Below are positions 3,124-10,812 of a DNA stretch of 10,993 nucleotides, piece after piece. Both the position numbers and the translations under genes were made by a program. Position 1 is the first letter of the stretch. Every line of letters begins with the position of its first letter. Below the pieces are notes generated by a model that made no database searches, was not told the DNA's origin, and worked only from the letters and a program-made list of their open reading frames with translations. The DNA lies in contig NW_026852812.1 of the NCBI RefSeq assembly GCF_026571515.1, positions 254,256 to 265,248 of the forward strand, given 5' to 3'. The DNA is from Ruditapes philippinarum (lineage: Eukaryota).

Positions 3124-3233
3124 TCAACCCGAGAGATCATTTGCATCAAACAAATCCTGATCGTATTTTTCCGCCTGCACAAGTCGTCCACCGAACCACC
3201 GTCCATTTAATGACTGGCAGCCTTTTTCCACTT
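3124..3233 (-). CDS. PUF60: PUF60-like terminal coding exon (end of UHM, includes TGA stop at 3124-3126)
   Basis: Translation (E)[35 protein letters not shown]. Human has [36 protein letters not shown]. Acceptor tgttacag|AA. Phase is consistent with the previous exon. Cumulative CDS in the window is 1455 nt = 484 codons plus stop. Confidence 0.85.
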
Positions 3234-3317
3234 CTGTAACATAAATTCAAATGACAATTTTAATTCTGCATTATGTTTAATACAGTTATTTTTGTTTTTC
3301 CATTGCCTAGCTTTTAA

Positions 3318-3360
3318 CATGCCACCAAAACATAGAGCCTAGGCAAGCCTGCACATCCCC
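3318..3360 (+). repeat. Copy C (core only) of the dispersed repeat: GCCACCAAAACATAGAGCCTAGGCAAGCCTGCACATCC
   Basis: Core matches copies A and B at about 75-80% identity. It sits immediately upstream of an 11-bp inverted-repeat hairpin. Confidence 0.45.
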
Positions 3361-3361
3361 T

Positions 3362-3407
3362 CAGTGCAGACCATAATATATATGTCAAATGATTTTGGTC
3401 TGCACTG
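3362..3407. repeat. Perfect 11-bp inverted repeat (CAGTGCAGACC ... GGTCTGCACTG) with 24-nt AT-rich loop; hairpin / possible MITE end
   Basis: The reverse complement of 3362-3372 equals 3397-3407 exactly. Confidence 0.7.
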
Positions 3408-3506
3408 GTCTATGGCATTACATTAATCAAAAGACAGTATAACCTTTAAGAAATGTCCCGTTTCAGTACATAAAATTAACTAAAGAAGTGTAGAAATGAC
3501 AGGATT

Positions 3507-3700
3507 TGTTTGTTTGTTTGTTTCATTTTTACGCCTTTTCCCAACAGTATTTCAGTCATATAGGCGGGTAGTTTCCTAACCATCGTTCCTGGAGAGTTAC
3601 ACCAGTACTAGACTACCTTCCTCCGCACAAAACTACCAAAGCATCTCCCTGGGATCGAACCCACACCAGAGAGGTAACTGGATTACAAGTCATAGAAATG
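3507..3700 (-). mobile_element. Putative tRNA-derived SINE-like retroposon fragment with (GTTT)5 / minus-strand (AAAC)n tail
   Basis: The minus strand reads ...GTGTGGGTTCGATCCCAGGG... at about 3651-3662, a canonical tRNA B-box / T-arm motif (GGTTCGAnnCC). About 120 nt of GC-richer body follows, ending in the (GTTT)5 microsatellite at 3507-3527. No clean A box was seen, so the element may be 5'-truncated. GC content is clearly higher than the surrounding intron. Confidence 0.35.
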
Positions 3701-3935
3701 ACAGATTTTTTTAAAGAGCTTGTGTAGGAAACTATACAGCTATTTAAAGCTTATACACCTTTTGGACATATGTGACATTACCACCAACCTCTTCAATACG
3801 TTAACCTCAAATGTGAACCTTTTGCCCTGATAATGATGTTTTAAGCTGTTTTGCCTCAATTGAGGTGTTTTACTATAATTTGGTTGTTTTACCTTATACT
3901 AATTCAGATGTTTTACTCTCTTTCATTCAACTTAC

Positions 3936-4125
3936 CAGCAGAATCGCTGAATTCTACAAATATTTTCACAATAACTTCAGCATCATCTTCTTCTCCCTGT
4001 CTTTCCTGATATATAATTACTCTGTTCACCTGTCCATACTTGCCGCATTCATCCGATACCTCGGCCTGTAACTCATCATCTAAATCCTCCGGACCTACCA
4101 TATTCTTCAATACCATTACTCTACT
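3936..4125 (-). CDS. PUF60: PUF60-like coding exon (C-terminal UHM / RRM3 domain, first part)
   Basis: Translation [63 protein letters not shown]. Human has [63 protein letters not shown]. Acceptor gttttcag|AGT, donor GCTG|gtaag. 190 nt, phase 0 to 1. Confidence 0.9.
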
Positions 4126-4825
4126 CTGAAAACAGAAATATTTATTTACGAAATGCTTTTCTTGTATCATATTTTTCTCTCTCTTTTTTTCCTTTAAGTT
4201 TTAGGTTTCACTGACACTGTTACTTTCTAGCTTGATTGCAATAGTGGGACCACTGATGCACACACTAGTTGGCCTTCAACTCCTTGGATTGTTTTACTAC
4301 TAAAATGTTCGAATTACTAAAATCAAAGGTGGAAAATATAAAATAAATTTCTTAAAAAATTTGGTGACTTTCTAGCATAACTAAAGTACGACTATGGCGC
4401 CATTCATTGCACTATTTCATGCATGCACAGAAACTCAAGTTGAACCAATTACGTACAATGAGCTTACTGAATAAAATTAAAGATATATCATGCTCATCCA
4501 TGCATAAAATATTTTTATCACAGAAATTTATTGAAATCTATGAAATTCTTACCAAAAATGTCAAATTTAAATAAAAGAATCAATAAACTATGTACTGGAA
4601 GTTGCGTTCCCTACTACAGGTCAAGTATAAAGTTAGTCTTTTCTTAATAAAAAAATGCCAACTATAATGTATATATTCATATTGTAACCACCATATAGTG
4701 TGTAGAATTTTAAACATAACATATCTACTTAGTAAGAAGTCAAAAGATGTTTATCTTATATTAAGAGACTGTGTAGCAAATATCAATATTTTTTAACATC
4801 AAATTTGAGTACAGTACATTTTGAA

Positions 4826-5004
4826 GTAATACTCACTTGAGATTGTCTCATTAATTTCTGCAATTAATTAATTAATTAAGCAGTTAAGTAATTTCTGTAA
4901 TACTCACCTGAGATTGTCTCATTAATTTCTGCAATTAATTAATTAATTAAGCAGTTAAGTAATTTCTGTAATATTCACCTGAGATTGTCTCATTAATTTC
5001 TGCA
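4826..5004. repeat. 71-bp tandem repeat, about 2.5 copies, spanning the exon/intron boundary of coding exon 4979-5220 and duplicating its 5' splice site
   Basis: Copies lie at 4826-4896, 4897-4967 and 4968-5004, with unit gtaatactcacctgagattgtctcattaatttctgcaattaattaattaattaagcagttaagtaatttct. The last copy is contiguous with the exon's 3' end. The minus strand reads ...CTCAG|GTGAAT (used donor), CTCAG|GTGAGT (copy 2) and CTCAA|GTGAGT (copy 1). Confidence 0.85.
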
Positions 5005-5220
5005 TCACCATGTGCCGCGCGTTACTACCACTAATCTTCATCGTCTCTTGTTGTTCTAATGTTTGATTTACTTCTTCCTCTGCCATCTTCTTCTCAGCTT
5101 CTTTCTTCTCTCGTTCTTTCTCTTTCTCCTTCTCTCGTCTTTTCTCCGAGTCCGAGTCCACCATTGAAGAGATCGCAGCCTGTAAACTGTTTCCTGTCGT
5201 TGGCGGCATCATAGATGATA
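4979..5220 (-). CDS. PUF60: PUF60-like coding exon (E/K-rich low-complexity region and segment preceding UHM)
   Basis: Translation (V)[80 protein letters not shown]. Human has ...[47 protein letters not shown]. Acceptor attattttag|TA, donor CAG|gtgaat. 242 nt = 2 + 80 codons. Confidence 0.85.
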
Positions 5221-5740
5221 CTAAAATAATAAATATATTTAGTGAGAATATAGGATAATTGTAAACATGTACGTCAAACGAGAGTACTTTACTTTTGCTT
5301 AACTGACAACAAGAATTACAAATTGAGGAATTATTATCATCATCTTAGCCGGGTCAAATGGCAACTTTGTCAGCTTTATTTAAAGCTGGAGACCACAAGT
5401 ACCTCACAGTGCATTATTTCAATTACAAGGAGAGCACCTACATGCAAGAAGAACTGTAGACCTTATGTAAGCAAACTTGATTGCTACCTCACAAGATAGT
5501 GTTCAAAGAGCAATATGGTATTGATATGATTGTAAATGTAAGCAACAAAAGGGCAAACAGGTGAGATTCAAATCGGCAGCAGTAAGAACGATGTGTTTCA
5601 AAGTCAGCAACCAAAGCTACCCAGCAATTAATTTGAGATCAGCATAAGTAACCAAATGAGAGTATGTTATCTGATTCTTAAATGTTTACATGATCAATCT
5701 TTATCTTTATCATACATGATTTCAGTTGGGTTTTTCAGAC

Positions 5741-5850
5741 TATTTAATTTAACTCGTACCCTGCTGGAACCGAAAATGATCAGTCTTTGCCACAAATATA
5801 GAGCCAGGGCAACCTACATCTCTATAGTTTTACCAGTCTTTATACTGTTG
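5741..5850 (+). repeat. Copy A of a short dispersed repeat (core TTTGCCACAAATATAGAGCCAGGGCAACCTACATCTC...ACTGTTGCTGGC), intronic, antisense to host gene
   Basis: Aligns over about 100 bp with 8586-8690 (copy B) and over the core with 3318-3360 (copy C). All three lie on the plus strand inside introns of the minus-strand gene. Confidence 0.6.
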
Positions 5851-5975
5851 CTGGCTTATTCTTTTTGTATTCTGATAATAAATTTCTTCAAACATCAAAA
5901 TGACTTTTTTAACTCCAAGCAGGGCAAAATTGTTACACAAATTCAAAACGTAAAGGATTAGGAAATCTCTGTTAC

Positions 5976-6174
5976 CTTTAGGAAGAGCTTTAGGTCCCGC
6001 CAAGCCTGCAGTGACGACACCTGGTGGTGGTATATTTGCCACAGTGGGCGGAGCTATGCCTAGAGACTGTGGTATAACTACACCAGGGCCTCCAATCATG
6101 TTAAGGTCAGCTTGTAACCCTAATTTTGGGCTACCTGTAACACCCAACTGGGTTGGGTTTACTACGCCTGGAGG
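5976..6174 (-). CDS. PUF60: PUF60-like coding exon (Pro/Gly/Val-rich linker)
   Basis: Translation PPGVVNPTQLGVTGSPKLGLQADLNMIGGPGVVIPQSLGIAPPTVANIPPPGVVTAGLAGPKALPK. Human has [41 protein letters not shown]. Acceptor tttcag|CCT, donor AAAG|gtaac. 199 nt ends in phase 1, matching the next exon's 2-nt start. Confidence 0.8.
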
Positions 6175-6473
6175 CTGAAATTAGAAATATGCATTTTGAA
6201 AAGAAGAAAATGTACTTAAAACAATGTCCAGCTCAAGGTGGCTTCAAAAACTTACATTAAGAATTCACAAAGTATTAATTAATTATTATAATCAATTGAA
6301 AAAGAATGAGACTCATTACAATCCACATGTCTACAAAACCTGTCTGCAAGAAAATTGAAAATTTCTTTTCCCTTCAGTAAAGGTGACCTTTCAATAAATG
6401 TCTTTTCAACATGTCAAATAATCATATATAAAATTAATATATAACATTTGTATTTGTATGTTTCTCCACTTAC

Positions 6474-6605
6474 AATAAGCTGCTGTTGAGCATCCATTGC
6501 TGTTATTTTAGCAGTGACTGCTGCAGCTGCTACTGCTGCTGCTGTTGGCATAGCGCCAAGACCTGGTGTCTGAGGCTGCATCAATACATCTGGTGGAGTT
6601 ATTGC
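6474..6605 (-). CDS. PUF60: PUF60-like coding exon (Ala-rich linker)
   Basis: Translation [44 protein letters not shown]. Human has [38 protein letters not shown]. Acceptor ttacag|GCA, donor ATT|gtaag. 132 nt = 44 codons, phase 0 to 0. Confidence 0.85.
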
Positions 6606-6692
6606 CTGTAATATACCAATTATAATTTATTGTCTATACGCAAGATATATAAACTATAGCAGATTAATCTGAGCTTTATCTATTTTTATACC

Positions 6693-6754
6693 TAGTGATA
6701 AAAGATCTATGTTTATTATTTTTTAGTGATGAAAGATCTATGTTTATTCTTATC
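6693..6754. repeat. 31-bp tandem duplication in intron (tagtgat[a/g]aaagatctatgtttatt x2)
   Basis: Direct reading. Copies lie at 6693-6717 and 6724-6748 with a 6-bp spacer. Confidence 0.8.
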
Positions 6755-7105
6755 ACTATTATTTGTACGTCCACTTCCTAAACAAATTGGCACTGGTTGT
6801 ATAAATGACCCCTGAAGAACTTAAATAATTGATTTATTTCGCAAGATATTTCTTGGGTTATGTATTCATTTTTCTCAAACACAAAGACATCTTTTAAATT
6901 TTTGTTCATTAAGTTCTTAAGTGCAAAGTAGTATCCATTCTTAATTATATTTTAATAATAATTTTATAAATGGCAACCTTAAATCATTGTCTGTATCAAA
7001 GTATATGTACACAATAATTGATAAAACAAAATGTATTTCTTTGACTTGTAGCAATCATTGTAAAACCAGAATAATTATAAATATTCATCACCATTCCAAT
7101 ATACT

Positions 7106-7194
7106 TAATACCAATACAAATATACAAAATAATCATTGAAATATACATAATACCCATACAAATATACAAAACAATCATTTCAATTATTTCACTT
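7106..7194. repeat. About 44-bp tandem duplication in intron (taatacc[a/c]atacaaatatacaaaa[t/c]aatcatt...)
   Basis: Direct reading. Two adjacent diverged copies. Confidence 0.7.
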
Positions 7195-7355
7195 ATTTCA
7201 CATATTAATCATTCAACTACACAAAATGACCATTCTATTTCAAATATGCACCAAAACTATTTAAATATACACAAAAACCATTCAAATTTACTCAAAAATA
7301 ATTGTTACTTTCCTAATTGACAATTGAAATATACATAAAAATATCAAATACTTAC

Positions 7356-7458
7356 TCTTCCTACTCTAAGGTATTGTCCTCCCAGATCAAACAGATTCAT
7401 GGATGCCACAGCATCTGTTGCTGATTGAGAATTTGTGTACTCTATAAAACCATAACCC
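7356..7458 (-). CDS. PUF60: PUF60-like coding exon (RRM2 RNP1 GYGFIEY and C-terminal part)
   Basis: Translation (K)[34 protein letters not shown]. Human has [35 protein letters not shown]. Acceptor ttgttgcag|G, donor AGA|gtaagt. 103 nt = 1 + 34 codons. Confidence 0.9.
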
Positions 7459-7720
7459 CTGCAACAAACATAAAACAATCATTACCATTTTTTTCTCTCT
7501 TTTTGTTCAGGAAATAGATATTGATTTTGAGTGAGTAAAAGTAGAATAATGCACCATTCCACCTCAAATGTGCAATATTTTGGGGAAAAATGTGGAGCAT
7601 TATAGAATATATGATTAACAAAACATTTTTACATGGATCTGATCAGAACTAATTCAATCACTATGGACAGATTATATCTTATGCCTAGTAAGTTAGTTTC
7701 CTGAACTGTTCAAAGACATA

Positions 7721-7900
7721 ACATTTAGTTCCTAGACAAAACATCTAGTTCCTAGACATAACATCTAGTTCCTAGATACAACATTTAGTTCCTAGACGTA
7801 ACATCTAGTTACTAGACATAACATTTAGTTCCTAGACATAACATTTAGTTCTTAGACATAACATTTAGTTCCTAGACATAACATTTAGTTCCTACACATT
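7721..7900. repeat. Intronic 20-bp minisatellite, 9 units, consensus ACATTTAGTTCCTAGACATA
   Basis: The window contains exact 20-bp periodicity: acatttagttcctagacaaa / acatctagttcctagacata / ... for 9 consecutive copies with point substitutions. Confidence 0.9.
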
Positions 7901-8400
7901 GCATTTGAGAGTTTATGCATGCTTCACTACCCATATATTCCTAAAATACCCTCTTATGTAAGCAAACTCCATTTGTCAGTGAATCTAAATAAACAGGATA
8001 TGTTTGCAAACATAAAAGCCATGTCCCAAAAACTGTTGCCTTGCAACAGTGACTGAAATTTTTTACAATGAAATATTTAACCTTAAGGTCAAAGTCATTT
8101 ACAAGCAGCATTTCAATAAATCAAAATGTATTCAATATGTCAAAATACAGTTTCCAGCCCTCCCGCCACCACCCATTATCCACAAAATATGTTGAATCTA
8201 TATATGTTTATCTAACAGAGATGATATGGCCAAAATTTAATGTTGTCCAACCTCAGACAGACCAATACCTGTACATGTGAGACCATTTATCAATACATGG
8301 ACACAAATTTTATAGAAATATCTTTAAACTCATATATACAACAATGCAAAAGATATCAGATACATTGACTTCTGTTCTGACTACCAAGTATGAAACTTAC

Positions 8401-8478
8401 TTATGTCTTAGTCCTCCTTTAGATGTTGGATCTTTAATCAGCATACAGCTTACAATTTTACCAAATGCTTCAAACACA
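8401..8478 (-). CDS. PUF60: PUF60-like coding exon (RRM2 middle)
   Basis: Translation (S)[25 protein letters not shown](K). Human has [24 protein letters not shown]. Acceptor tatttcag|T, donor AA|gtaagt. 78 nt = 1 + 25 codons + 2. Confidence 0.85.
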
Positions 8479-8585
8479 CTGAAATATAAAAATATAATCA
8501 ATTACAGCATTAACTTTGTTGAATTATATATGCTATTAACTGGTAGCATAAAATGTTAGCATTACTGCAGCTGCAAAACATTTAC

Positions 8586-8690
8586 ACTTACCCAGCTGAC
8601 ACCAAAAGTGAAAAGCTTTTGCCACCAGTATAAAGCCAGGCCAACCGTACATCTGAGAGTAGCCTGACCAGGCCCTACACTGTTGGCTGA
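8586..8690 (+). repeat. Copy B of the same dispersed repeat (TTTGCCACCAGTATAAAGCCAGGCCAACCGTACATCTG...ACTGTTGGCTGACC)
   Basis: Shared blocks with copy A: GA.ACC.AAAA.TGA..AG..TTTGCCAC...TATA.AGCCAGG.CAACC..ACATCT....TAG....CCAG.C..TA.ACTGTTG..TGGC. Confidence 0.6.
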
Positions 8691-8817
8691 CCAAATTCAA
8701 CTTTCCCATTTATATCCTCAAAATTCATTATGGACAATTCCAAAAATGAATGTTGGACAAGTTCATTCAAAGAAATCAGCAAATGAAGTGTTAATACATA
8801 CTCCAGTACTGTAAATG

Positions 8818-8820
<3 letters not shown>

Positions 8821-8849
<29 letters not shown>
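8821..8849. repeat. (AC)14 dinucleotide microsatellite, intronic
   Basis: cacacacacacacacacacacacacacac was read directly. It produces the spurious CVCVCVCV ORF on the minus strand. Confidence 0.95.
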
Positions 8850-8853
<4 letters not shown>

Positions 8854-9073
8854 CTTGTCTTATTTTTCCAAAATGTAACAAAGAACATCCTAAAAGAAGG
8901 TTACACTTCTGTAAAAAACATGCTTGTTTCAAAGAAATCTTCATCTTTCAAAAATTAATCTTTAGCGAAATACACCTTTAAAGAGTTACATTAACTTTTT
9001 ATATGCCCCAATTAATGATGAGCAGTGTGTAATATGTAAATATCTTGAGGTTAATTGATATTAGTTAACTCAC

Positions 9074-9201
9074 CTTGAGATATCTTTCTCTGTAAGGTCT
9101 GGATGTATGGAGGCTATATAAATTCTATTGTAGTTTTTAGCTTCTGAAGCAATCTGCTCTATAATAGGCTGTGCTTGCGGCATATTGCTAGGTCGACCAA
9201 C
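9074..9201 (-). CDS. PUF60: PUF60-like coding exon (inter-RRM linker and start of RRM2, RNP2 IYIASI)
   Basis: Translation [42 protein letters not shown]. Human has [42 protein letters not shown]. Acceptor gtttacag|GTT, donor AG|gtgagtta. 128 nt, phase 0 to phase 2. Confidence 0.9.
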
Positions 9202-9763
9202 CTGTAAACAATAACAATAAATTCATGACAATCTATAACCCTTGACTCATTTCTTATTTACTTGTATCTACGGGTTAAGATGTTGTTTAGGATATCTTGG
9301 GTTTTACAAAAGTTTTCATTCTGTATAAACTTCTGTATAAAGTGAGCCTGCGGCAAGATTTATAACATCTCTGAACCAAGATTGAAGAAATGACAACTTA
9401 TATAAGATGTGTTTATCAAAGGATATTATTATTTAGTCAAACAGTTAAATTACAGCAAAATCATTGTGATGACCTATTTTTTTTTTATAAAATGTCAACA
9501 ATTGAATAAACAAATGTTTGATGACCTCATCACTTTTACATTAATTTTGTGAAATATGAAAAAAAAAACAAGTGATGATTATATTGCAAAATAAACGGGT
9601 CATAATTGCCCTAAATTGCTCACCTCTGATCATTGATAAGAAAAGTCATAATATCTTCAAAGCAAGGAGTCAGGTGAGCTAAAAACATATTTTATCCATA
9701 GGAAATAGACGTAACAATCTCCCTTTAGAAATAATCAAGTCTCAATAAATTAGTAAATCTTAC

Positions 9764-9977
9764 CTTTATATTTCTGCCACCAATCATTACACCATTCATC
9801 TGTTCCAGTGACAACTGAGCAGCCTCTGGTATATCATACTCTATGAATGCAAACCCCTTGTGTTTGTTTGTAATGGGATCCCATGACAGGTTCACACTTT
9901 TGATAGGACCAAATGGCAGGAACGCTTGTTTTATAGTGTCTTCTTTTATTTCAAAGTTTATACTTCCAACATATATT
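9764..9977 (-). CDS. PUF60: PUF60-like coding exon encoding RRM1 (RNP2 IYVGSI and RNP1 KGFAFIEY)
   Basis: Translation (R)[71 protein letters not shown]. Human PUF60 has [72 protein letters not shown]. Acceptor ttttcag|A, donor AAG|gtaag. 214 nt = 1 + 71 codons. Confidence 0.9.
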
Positions 9978-10544
9978 CTGAAAATATAATAAAGAAGAAA
10001 GATGGATTATAAAGTGACACATATTCAGTTAGTTTGATTGTTTTGATTGATTTGAAGTTACACTGGCACTGTCATGATCCTATGGCACCTTCCAGCTTTA
10101 CTGATGAATGAAGACCTCAGGTGTCCCTTCCTGCTTTATTTACAGCACAAACAGGCATCTAAGTAGAACCACCAACCTTCCATAACTAGATAGCTTCCTC
10201 ACTTAAAAGAATCCAAAGTCTCTCACAGGAGATTTACAGTATTCAAGACAAGGTACAAAAGTAAATTATGCTTGAAATACTGCAGTCAGAAAATGTTTAG
10301 AAAAGACGTTACTTATTATGATACTTGCAACTTTGAATGAAATATTATAATTTATAAGTCGTATGATAAATTTTATTTCTCCTACCAGAGCTCTGTGCAA
10401 CATAAATAGATCCTGGCCAGCTTGCAAACCAATATTGACAAACCAGCTTCTAGTTGCTAAATATTTTAGTCCTCAAATAGCAAAATCATTAAAACCAACA
10501 ATTGTATGGCAAGTCCATTATAAAAGAAAGGGTGGAAAGTTTAC

Positions 10545-10603
10545 CTGCACATAAGAGCCAAAGCCTGTTGTCTTTGTACTGTGTTCTGGAAATTCTGCAT
10601 TTG
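10545..10603 (-). CDS. PUF60: PUF60-like splicing factor, coding exon (pre-RRM1 segment, ...QMQNFQNTVQRQQALALMCR)
   Basis: Minus-strand translation QMQNFQNTVQRQQALALMC(R) aligns to human PUF60 ...QSMAAQRQRALAIMCR just before RRM1. Acceptor tatttcag|CAA, donor AG|gtaaac. The 59-nt length leaves phase 2, which the next exon completes to AGA = R. Confidence 0.7.
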
Positions 10604-10797: not shown

Positions 10798-10812
10798 CCC
10801 CCCCCCCCCCCC
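10798..10812. repeat. C15 homopolymer (G15 on the gene strand), intronic
   Basis: ttcccccccccccccccggtg was read directly. It gives the PPPPP runs in the plus-strand ORF track. Confidence 0.95.

Follow-up and report, generated by a model that had tools for sequence, protein, structure and literature searches.

Minisatellites whose first monomer lies across an exon–intron boundary, with the 5′ splice site (donor) repeated in the intron, constitute a described class (Borensztajn et al., PMC1557585). Its members include repeats in F7 intron 7, IFI6/6-16 intron 2, CBS intron 13, LMNB2, and PDGF (PMC1557585). One of them, the VNTR of F7 intron 7, is built from a 37-bp unit present in 5–9 copies (PMC1557585). 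The most upstream site is the only one used in F7, LMNB2, and PDGF, and the next two sites are used too in IFI6 and CBS (PMC1557585). When examined in F7 minigenes, pseudo-sites raised to a consensus value of 91 still failed to compete, and CAG/gtgagt pseudo-sites captured ~70–90% of splicing from a weaker upstream site (PMC1557585). A splice junction is also duplicated in CBS 844ins68, a benign 68-bp duplication (PMC2630376).

Judged by its sequence, the repeat described here belongs to the F7-type class and is an already known kind of repeat, a point the earlier note on this DNA had missed. It was found in the window, by which we mean the whole 10,993-nt stretch of Ruditapes philippinarum DNA that was analyzed. 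Its units are arranged head to tail, the first of them consists of an exon end plus the authentic donor, and the donor recurs within the following intron at a 71-nt spacing. Copy number is three in the window versus two in an independent contig (L001), a comparison of two sequences that possibly come from different species. What is added to the class is such a minisatellite, variable in copy number, in a mollusc PUF60 gene.

The gene occupies the minus strand of the window (3124..10603) in ten exons and terminates in a TGA stop at 3126–3124. Numbered within the window, exons 1 through 7 lie at 10603–10545, 9977–9764, 9201–9074, 8478–8401, 7458–7356, 6605–6474, and 6174–5976. Exon 8 (5220–4979; 242 nt, phase 0) ends with ATG AGA CAA TCT CAG (MRQSQ), exon 9 (4125–3936) is the first of the C-terminal UHM domain, and exon 10 spans 3233–3124. 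Intron 8 (4126..4978; 853 nt), which houses most of the repeat, closes with the acceptor tttctgttttcAG/AGT, where the slash marks the splice point as it does throughout and the AG is found at 4127/4126. Joined via GT–AG introns of 299–942 nt, the ten exons encode an uninterrupted 484-aa ORF, with ~104 N-terminal residues falling outside the window. The exons were first located by tblastn with a human PUF60 probe, and the model was then re-verified against the Mercenaria mercenaria protein (P0121), which recovers every exon by tblastn.

The 484-aa product scores 619.5 bits against TIGR01645, the NCBIfam model for half-pint poly-U binding splicing factors (cutoff 443.95, E = 7.5e-186). Two Pfam RRM_1 domains are detected, and the C-terminus aligns with the end of the U2AF large-subunit model. 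Aligned over 100% of the query, the product is 93% identical to the PUF60-like isoform X1 of Mercenaria mercenaria, and identities to the proteins of other clams are 87% (Mactra), 84% (Mya), and 82% (Dreissena). On the strength of these matches, the gene is a PUF60/half-pint orthologue, in agreement with the earlier note, which had called it PUF60-like. The identities also point to a heterodont, venerid-like clam. The coding exon proposed there at 4979–5220 proved genuine, as it sits in the continuous ten-exon ORF, and the AG of the proposed acceptor at 4127/4126 is present.

Exon 8 additionally encodes a Glu/Lys-rich stretch, EKRREKEKEKEREKKEAEKK (window 5088–5159), by way of short imperfect 6–15-bp repeats identified with Tandem Repeats Finder (TRF). 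This stretch also occurs in Mercenaria with small in-frame indel differences, and the low-complexity linker appears to evolve by slippage. Another observation on relatives concerns Mya arenaria (L004, 11844–14491), where the annotation has a convergent gene, ribose-5-phosphate isomerase A, that overlaps the PUF60 gene range at its 3′ end.

At the boundary of exon 8 and intron 8, TRF reports a tandem array of period 71 at 4826–5004 (gene on the minus strand; 2.5 copies, 98% matches, no indels, score 344). Self-comparison of the window at a lag of 71 yields 106/108 matches, as against a window-wide median of 30 and a 99.9th percentile of 44 outside the repeat. The 71-bp array is real and far above chance, and the earlier description of a 71-bp repeat carrying three donors at 4826–5004 holds. 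Read along the gene, unit 1 (4934–5004) combines the last 26 nt of exon 8 (5004–4979) with the first 45 nt of intron 8 and contains donor 1, CAG/GTGAAT. Unit 2 (4863–4933) is wholly intronic and contains pseudo-donor 2, CAG/GTGAGT. Unit 3 (4826–4862) is a partial copy of 37 nt, in which 26 exon-like and 11 intron nt carry pseudo-donor 3, CAA/GTGAGT, before unique intron sequence resumes. The composition of the unit had previously been put at ~30 nt of exon and ~41 nt of intron; it is actually 26 + 45. Units 1 and 2 differ by a single base at donor position +5 (A at 4974 versus G at 4903), and the single difference between units 2 and 3 over 37 nt is at donor position −1 (G at 4908 versus A at 4837).

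A weak 34-bp sub-period was also noted by TRF within the array (4889–5002). The intronic filler was considered as a dispersed element and rejected, given that it is present in the two repeat units alone. Rfam and tRNA scans of the window gave no matches.

The strength of the three donors was gauged by U1 duplex energy and by comparison with the gene's own donors. Duplex energies are −8.5 kcal/mol for donor 1 (GT at 4978/4977), −14.3 kcal/mol for donor 2 (GT at 4907/4906), and −7.7 kcal/mol for donor 3 (GT at 4836/4835), and the eight other donors of the gene range from −5.6 to −10.7 kcal/mol. Nowhere in intron 8 is there a better U1 match than donor 2, which is clearly stronger than donor 1; donor 3 is approximately equal to donor 1. 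The earlier note had described two stronger cryptic donors downstream; this is correct for donor 2 (−14.3 versus −8.5) and has to be withdrawn for donor 3 (−7.7). Donor 1 is not abnormal for its gene, because it falls mid-range among the gene's donors and because the +5 G it lacks is also missing in two other donors of the gene (GTAAAC and GTAACA) and in the orthologous Mactra donor. The predicted RNA ensemble revealed no meaningful accessibility difference among the three donors (P unpaired 0.25–0.30).

When donor 1 is joined to the acceptor at 4127/4126, the junction reads MQKLMRQSQ/SRVMVL, and the eight closest (heterodont) relatives display MQKLMRQSQS(R/K)VMVL or a one-residue variant. This conserved junction is obtained from donor 1 alone, which sustains the claim that no other donor keeps the frame into the UHM exon. 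Protein conservation in this way identifies donor 1 as the productive site and speaks to that point only. Protein searches with the exon 8–9 junction peptide and with the full 484-aa product returned, besides an ORF from a genomic contig (P0011, considered below), a best match to Mercenaria at 93%, and they recovered no transcript product of the clam's own species.

Direct use of donor 2 or 3 breaks the frame, and the 71-nt units (75 nt in L001) contain stops. Whether reached through intron read-through or via donor 2 or 3, an in-frame TAA (4955..4957, minus strand) follows VNITEIT. Splicing from donor 2 or 3 would keep 71 or 142 nt of the intron, respectively, and end in a stop after 7 extra codons, with loss of the UHM exons. 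The ORF at 4955–5212, which ends in QSQVNITEIT and the stop, agrees with the isoform translations; an in-frame stop and the loss of the UHM domain had been foreseen for the downstream donors, and the translations confirm the TAA at 4957–4955. An exact look-up of this window read-through ORF (4955–5212) returned no record. Upon use of donor 2, the TAA would precede the next junction by 47 nt and the last by 237 nt. Messages from donor 2 or 3 would accordingly trigger nonsense-mediated decay (NMD) under the vertebrate exon-junction rule, if that rule also applies in molluscs.

A second allele was retrieved through the protein searches. L001 is a 1179-bp contig from JGI metagenome 3300049158 and is the source of P0011, an 82-aa ORF that is identical to the exon 8 product but ends in QSQVSIT. 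Upstream of the repeat, L001 and the window differ at 24/1050 aligned bases (2.3%) and by three small indels, and the four differences within exon 8 are all synonymous. By this degree of similarity, L001 represents either a further haplotype of this clam or one from a sibling species. Its array comprises two units with a period of 75 and an exon-adjacent donor CAG/GTGAGT. The last unit displays CAA/GTGAGT and then unique intron sequence, both as in the window. The filler of L001 is rearranged and reads ATTAC TTAATTGC AGAAATTAC (TTAA)n. At L001 1051–1100, the start of the unit recurs once more in truncated form (TTAATTGCAGAAATTAC), and the (TTAA)n run is longer. The repeat region is a nested, fast-changing slippage hotspot. 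Since an independent contig carries two copies, the junction duplication is real and its copy number is variable; the earlier note had proposed that collapse to one copy in other assemblies or individuals would expose an assembly artefact, and no such collapse is seen in L001.

A narrower form of artefact, in which the third copy and/or the +5 A of donor 1 result from an assembly or consensus error, is improbable. A genuine two-copy allele might have been expanded, for example, or a heterozygous site mis-phased, and several observations are compatible with such errors: units 1 and 2 are one base apart, the sole independent contig has two copies and a G at +5, and no second three-copy sequence emerged from searches of the contig collection or from exact look-up. 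The exact patterns searched in the JGI metagenome contig collection (repeat-plus-donor and exon-end) had 0 matches in a collection that is also without the L001 contig, and both the three-copy state and the +5 A were observed in the window alone. However, the junction duplication is independently confirmed in L001, and, because the fillers differ by indels, adding one unit to L001 would not reproduce the window. Ordinary reads or read pairs should also be able to span an array of 179 bp.

The position of intron 8 (phase 0) is the same in Mercenaria, Mactra, and Mya, each of which has one donor. The orthologous introns begin with CAG/GTTAGT in Mercenaria (3205 nt), ATG/GTAAAT in Mactra (5790 nt; also with A at +5), and CAG/GTATGA in Mya (726 nt). 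A further copy of the exon end was absent from the orthologous intron in all three. Because these clams share the intron position without the repeat, and the Mercenaria protein is 93% identical, the repeat arose after the split from Mercenaria. By these sequence comparisons, it is young and specific to the lineage of the window, and the recent duplication suggested earlier is supported by the repeat-free intron at the same position in three clams. As a separate observation, the orthologous intron 8 of Mactra antiquata (L003, ~42614–43919) harbors a different, unrelated tandem array (period ~145 bp, at least 8 copies), and PUF60 intron 8 seems to be minisatellite-prone in more than one clam.

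Taken as a whole, we consider it probable that the repeat is a young, lineage-specific, copy-variable minisatellite (VNTR), that donor 1 makes the functional mRNA, and that the array is neutral to mildly harmful instead of a regulatory device. The sequences establish the repeat, the gene model, the frames and stops, the lineage-specificity, and the copy-number difference; donor use we infer entirely, and NMD and neutrality along with it. The first duplication would have copied 37 nt of ancestral sequence, made up of 26 exon nt and GTGAGTATTAC, along with slippage-prone filler, the latter presumably an (AATT)n microsatellite plus partial copies of GCAGAAATTA. The −1 G>A of the distal copy is common to both alleles. 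In a later step confined to the window haplotype, the entire 71-bp unit would have been duplicated again, and the +5 G>A in the exon-adjacent donor would represent a derived change. It is the structure of L001 that suggests an old shared first duplication, subsequent copy-number and indel change, and a derived +5 A in the window. The repeat itself would most likely be a by-product of replication slippage or unequal exchange.

With respect to splicing, functional PUF60 mRNA would be produced from the most upstream, exon-adjacent donor, and the downstream copies would be pseudo-donors. Messages spliced from a pseudo-donor would be out of frame, meet a stop early, and probably undergo NMD. Some leakage to donor 2 is plausible because donor 1 of the window bears a derived +5 A and the next donor is a perfect CAG/GTGAGT. 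By analogy with F7, L001 (a strong donor followed by a weaker one) should splice normally, and the three-copy haplotype of the window may leak unproductive transcripts via donor 2. The window haplotype could even be substantially mis-spliced rather than near-neutral, given that the sequence of donor 2 is exactly that of the competing F7 minigene site, although the F7 analogy derives from mammalian cells and a 37-bp spacing and may not carry over to molluscs or to a 71-bp spacing.

An evolved function for the array is unlikely. In such a scenario, the repeated donors would serve as a PUF60 dosage valve, with a switch to donor 2 or 3 generating premature-stop messages that are degraded. Many splicing-factor genes autoregulate by unproductive splicing, and the regulatory poison elements of such genes are typically deeply conserved. 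The sequence would allow this: the best U1 match in the intron (donor 2, −14.3 kcal/mol) is placed behind a weaker authentic donor, and its use sets the TAA ahead of the next and last junctions at the distances given above. F7 minigenes further demonstrate that such a downstream site can take most splicing (PMC1557585). Nevertheless, Mercenaria, Mactra, and Mya lack the element in their orthologous introns, and this absence of the conservation characteristic of a poison element speaks against evolved regulation. The two alleles (window and L001) also differ in copy number and donor strength, and in L001 the authentic donor is the strong one, leaving no built-in switch. No account of PUF60 regulating itself via an alternative 5′ splice site emerged from a literature search.

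RNA structure offers another lead on the behavior of the three-copy haplotype. A first (AATT)n tract with its flanks, CTTAATTAATTAATTAATTGCAG (4929..4951, minus strand; AATT x4.5 at 4933–4950 by TRF), and a second tract (4858..4880, minus strand; AATT x4.5 at 4862–4879 by TRF) flank unit 2, and both are self-complementary. In the predicted ensemble, ~17 base pairs are expected between the two tracts, and the inter-tract duplex is predicted at −20.2 kcal/mol versus −4.1 kcal/mol for a hairpin inside one tract. The overall fold is modestly better than that of shuffles (z = −2.1). Such pairing, if it follows the model, would loop out unit 2 together with donor 2, and we regard it as a lead only. 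Built on these elements, the proposal that the three-copy haplotype is a natural PUF60 allele that is either splicing-compromised (donor 2 use leading to NMD) or self-buffered (by (AAUU)n loop-out) strikes us as a long shot. In the compromised version, the perfect decoy donor 2 would divert many transcripts, and a segregating hypomorph would tune PUF60 dosage. In the self-buffered version, the repeat would bring its own structural suppressor of the decoy that it creates.

Several other repeats are present in the window. An 18-bp tandem repeat (ACATGTATCTTGGAACAT) of ~18 copies, with 72% match and a 37-bp super-period, occupies 577–915, past the PUF60 stop codon, in what is either 3′ UTR or intergenic sequence. 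Intron 4 contains a 20-bp tandem repeat (AGACATAACATTTAGTTCCT; 7714–7899, 9.3 copies, 89% match), and intron 5 a cluster of 21/42-bp and 9-bp tandem repeats (7091–7298). On account of this cluster and the other arrays, the PUF60 introns can be called minisatellite-rich. A (CA)14.5 microsatellite is found in intron 3 (8821–8849), and C15 on the plus strand (10798–10812), a G run on the gene strand, lies upstream of the first window exon.

The intronic units also contain acceptor-like sequences: TTGCAG in unit 2, with its AG at 4930/4929, precedes 21 in-frame nt (4928–4908, KLMRQSQ), and an AG in unit 3 (4859/4858) likewise precedes 21 in-frame nt (4857–4837). By a route that the earlier note had missed, each intronic unit could on paper supply an in-frame micro-exon composed of TTGCAG/, the 21 nt (AAATTAATGAGACAATCTCAG, or the same with a final A; KLMRQSQ, phase 0–0), and a donor. 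Splicing would then run from donor 1 to the internal acceptor and from donor 2 or 3 to exon 9, adding 7 or 14 residues before the UHM with the frame kept, and the product would read CAATCTCAG/AAATTAATGAGACAATCTCA(G/A)/AGTAGAGTA. Both alleles have open and symmetric frames here. The pseudo-acceptors, with a pyrimidine content of 0.55, fall in the lower part of the range of the gene's real acceptors (0.50–0.85), and a branch-point-like TTAAC can be read 25 nt upstream of the AG. An open frame is automatic, however, because exon sequence was copied, and 21-nt micro-exons usually need strong sites or dedicated enhancers. The idea is very hard to credit, as the KLMRQSQ duplication occurs in 0/52 homologues with a readable junction, the mini-introns would measure 50 nt (54 in L001), or 121 nt when donor 1 joins the copy-3 acceptor, against 299–942 nt for the nine real introns, and 0.55 is near the mean pyrimidine content of random intronic AGs (0.49).

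The array is most likely a boundary-spanning, donor-repeating minisatellite without evolved function. If the extra donors are used, the locus provides a natural invertebrate test of the choice among close repeated 5′ splice sites, in which the question at stake is upstream-first scanning versus U1 complementarity. The arrangement suits this question because the strengths run weak/perfect/weak in the window and perfect/weak in the second allele. Use of the extra donors would also mean that a copy-number polymorphism alters the output of an essential splicing factor. If donor 1 alone is used, which is more likely, the locus represents another tolerated boundary-spanning minisatellite. It then carries a warning for annotation, since automated predictors may pick the stronger donor 2 and truncate the protein.

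Comparison with known systems places the clam repeat closest to the F7-type class. As in the F7 VNTR, unit 1 joins an exon end to an intron start, pseudo-donors follow the authentic donor, copy number is variable, and most pseudo-sites would break the frame. The differences lie in scale, sequence, and host. The clam array has 2–3 units, whereas F7 has 5–9 and IFI6 up to 25 pseudo-sites, and the clam unit of 71–75 bp includes 26 exon nt compared with 4 exon nt in F7. The clam donors are moreover non-identical: the authentic site is weakened by its +5 base and the third by its −1 base, and the second matches the consensus perfectly. Unlike the in-frame isoforms of the IFI6 type, the clam unit is not frame-keeping when a downstream donor is used directly; the frame is kept only along the two-step path via an internal acceptor. 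The clam repeat is also found in a mollusc, within a splicing-factor gene.

Two further systems invite comparison. As with the poison elements of alternative splicing coupled to NMD, an alternative splice choice in a splicing-factor gene would place a stop upstream of junctions; those elements are conserved and regulated, whereas the clam element is absent from three related clams. CBS 844ins68, like the clam repeat, duplicates a splice junction in tandem over a comparable length. This polymorphism is common and benign because the machinery consistently picks one duplicated site to give normal mRNA. There, an acceptor junction is present in exactly two copies, whereas in the clam it is a 5′ splice site that is repeated, and the number of copies varies.
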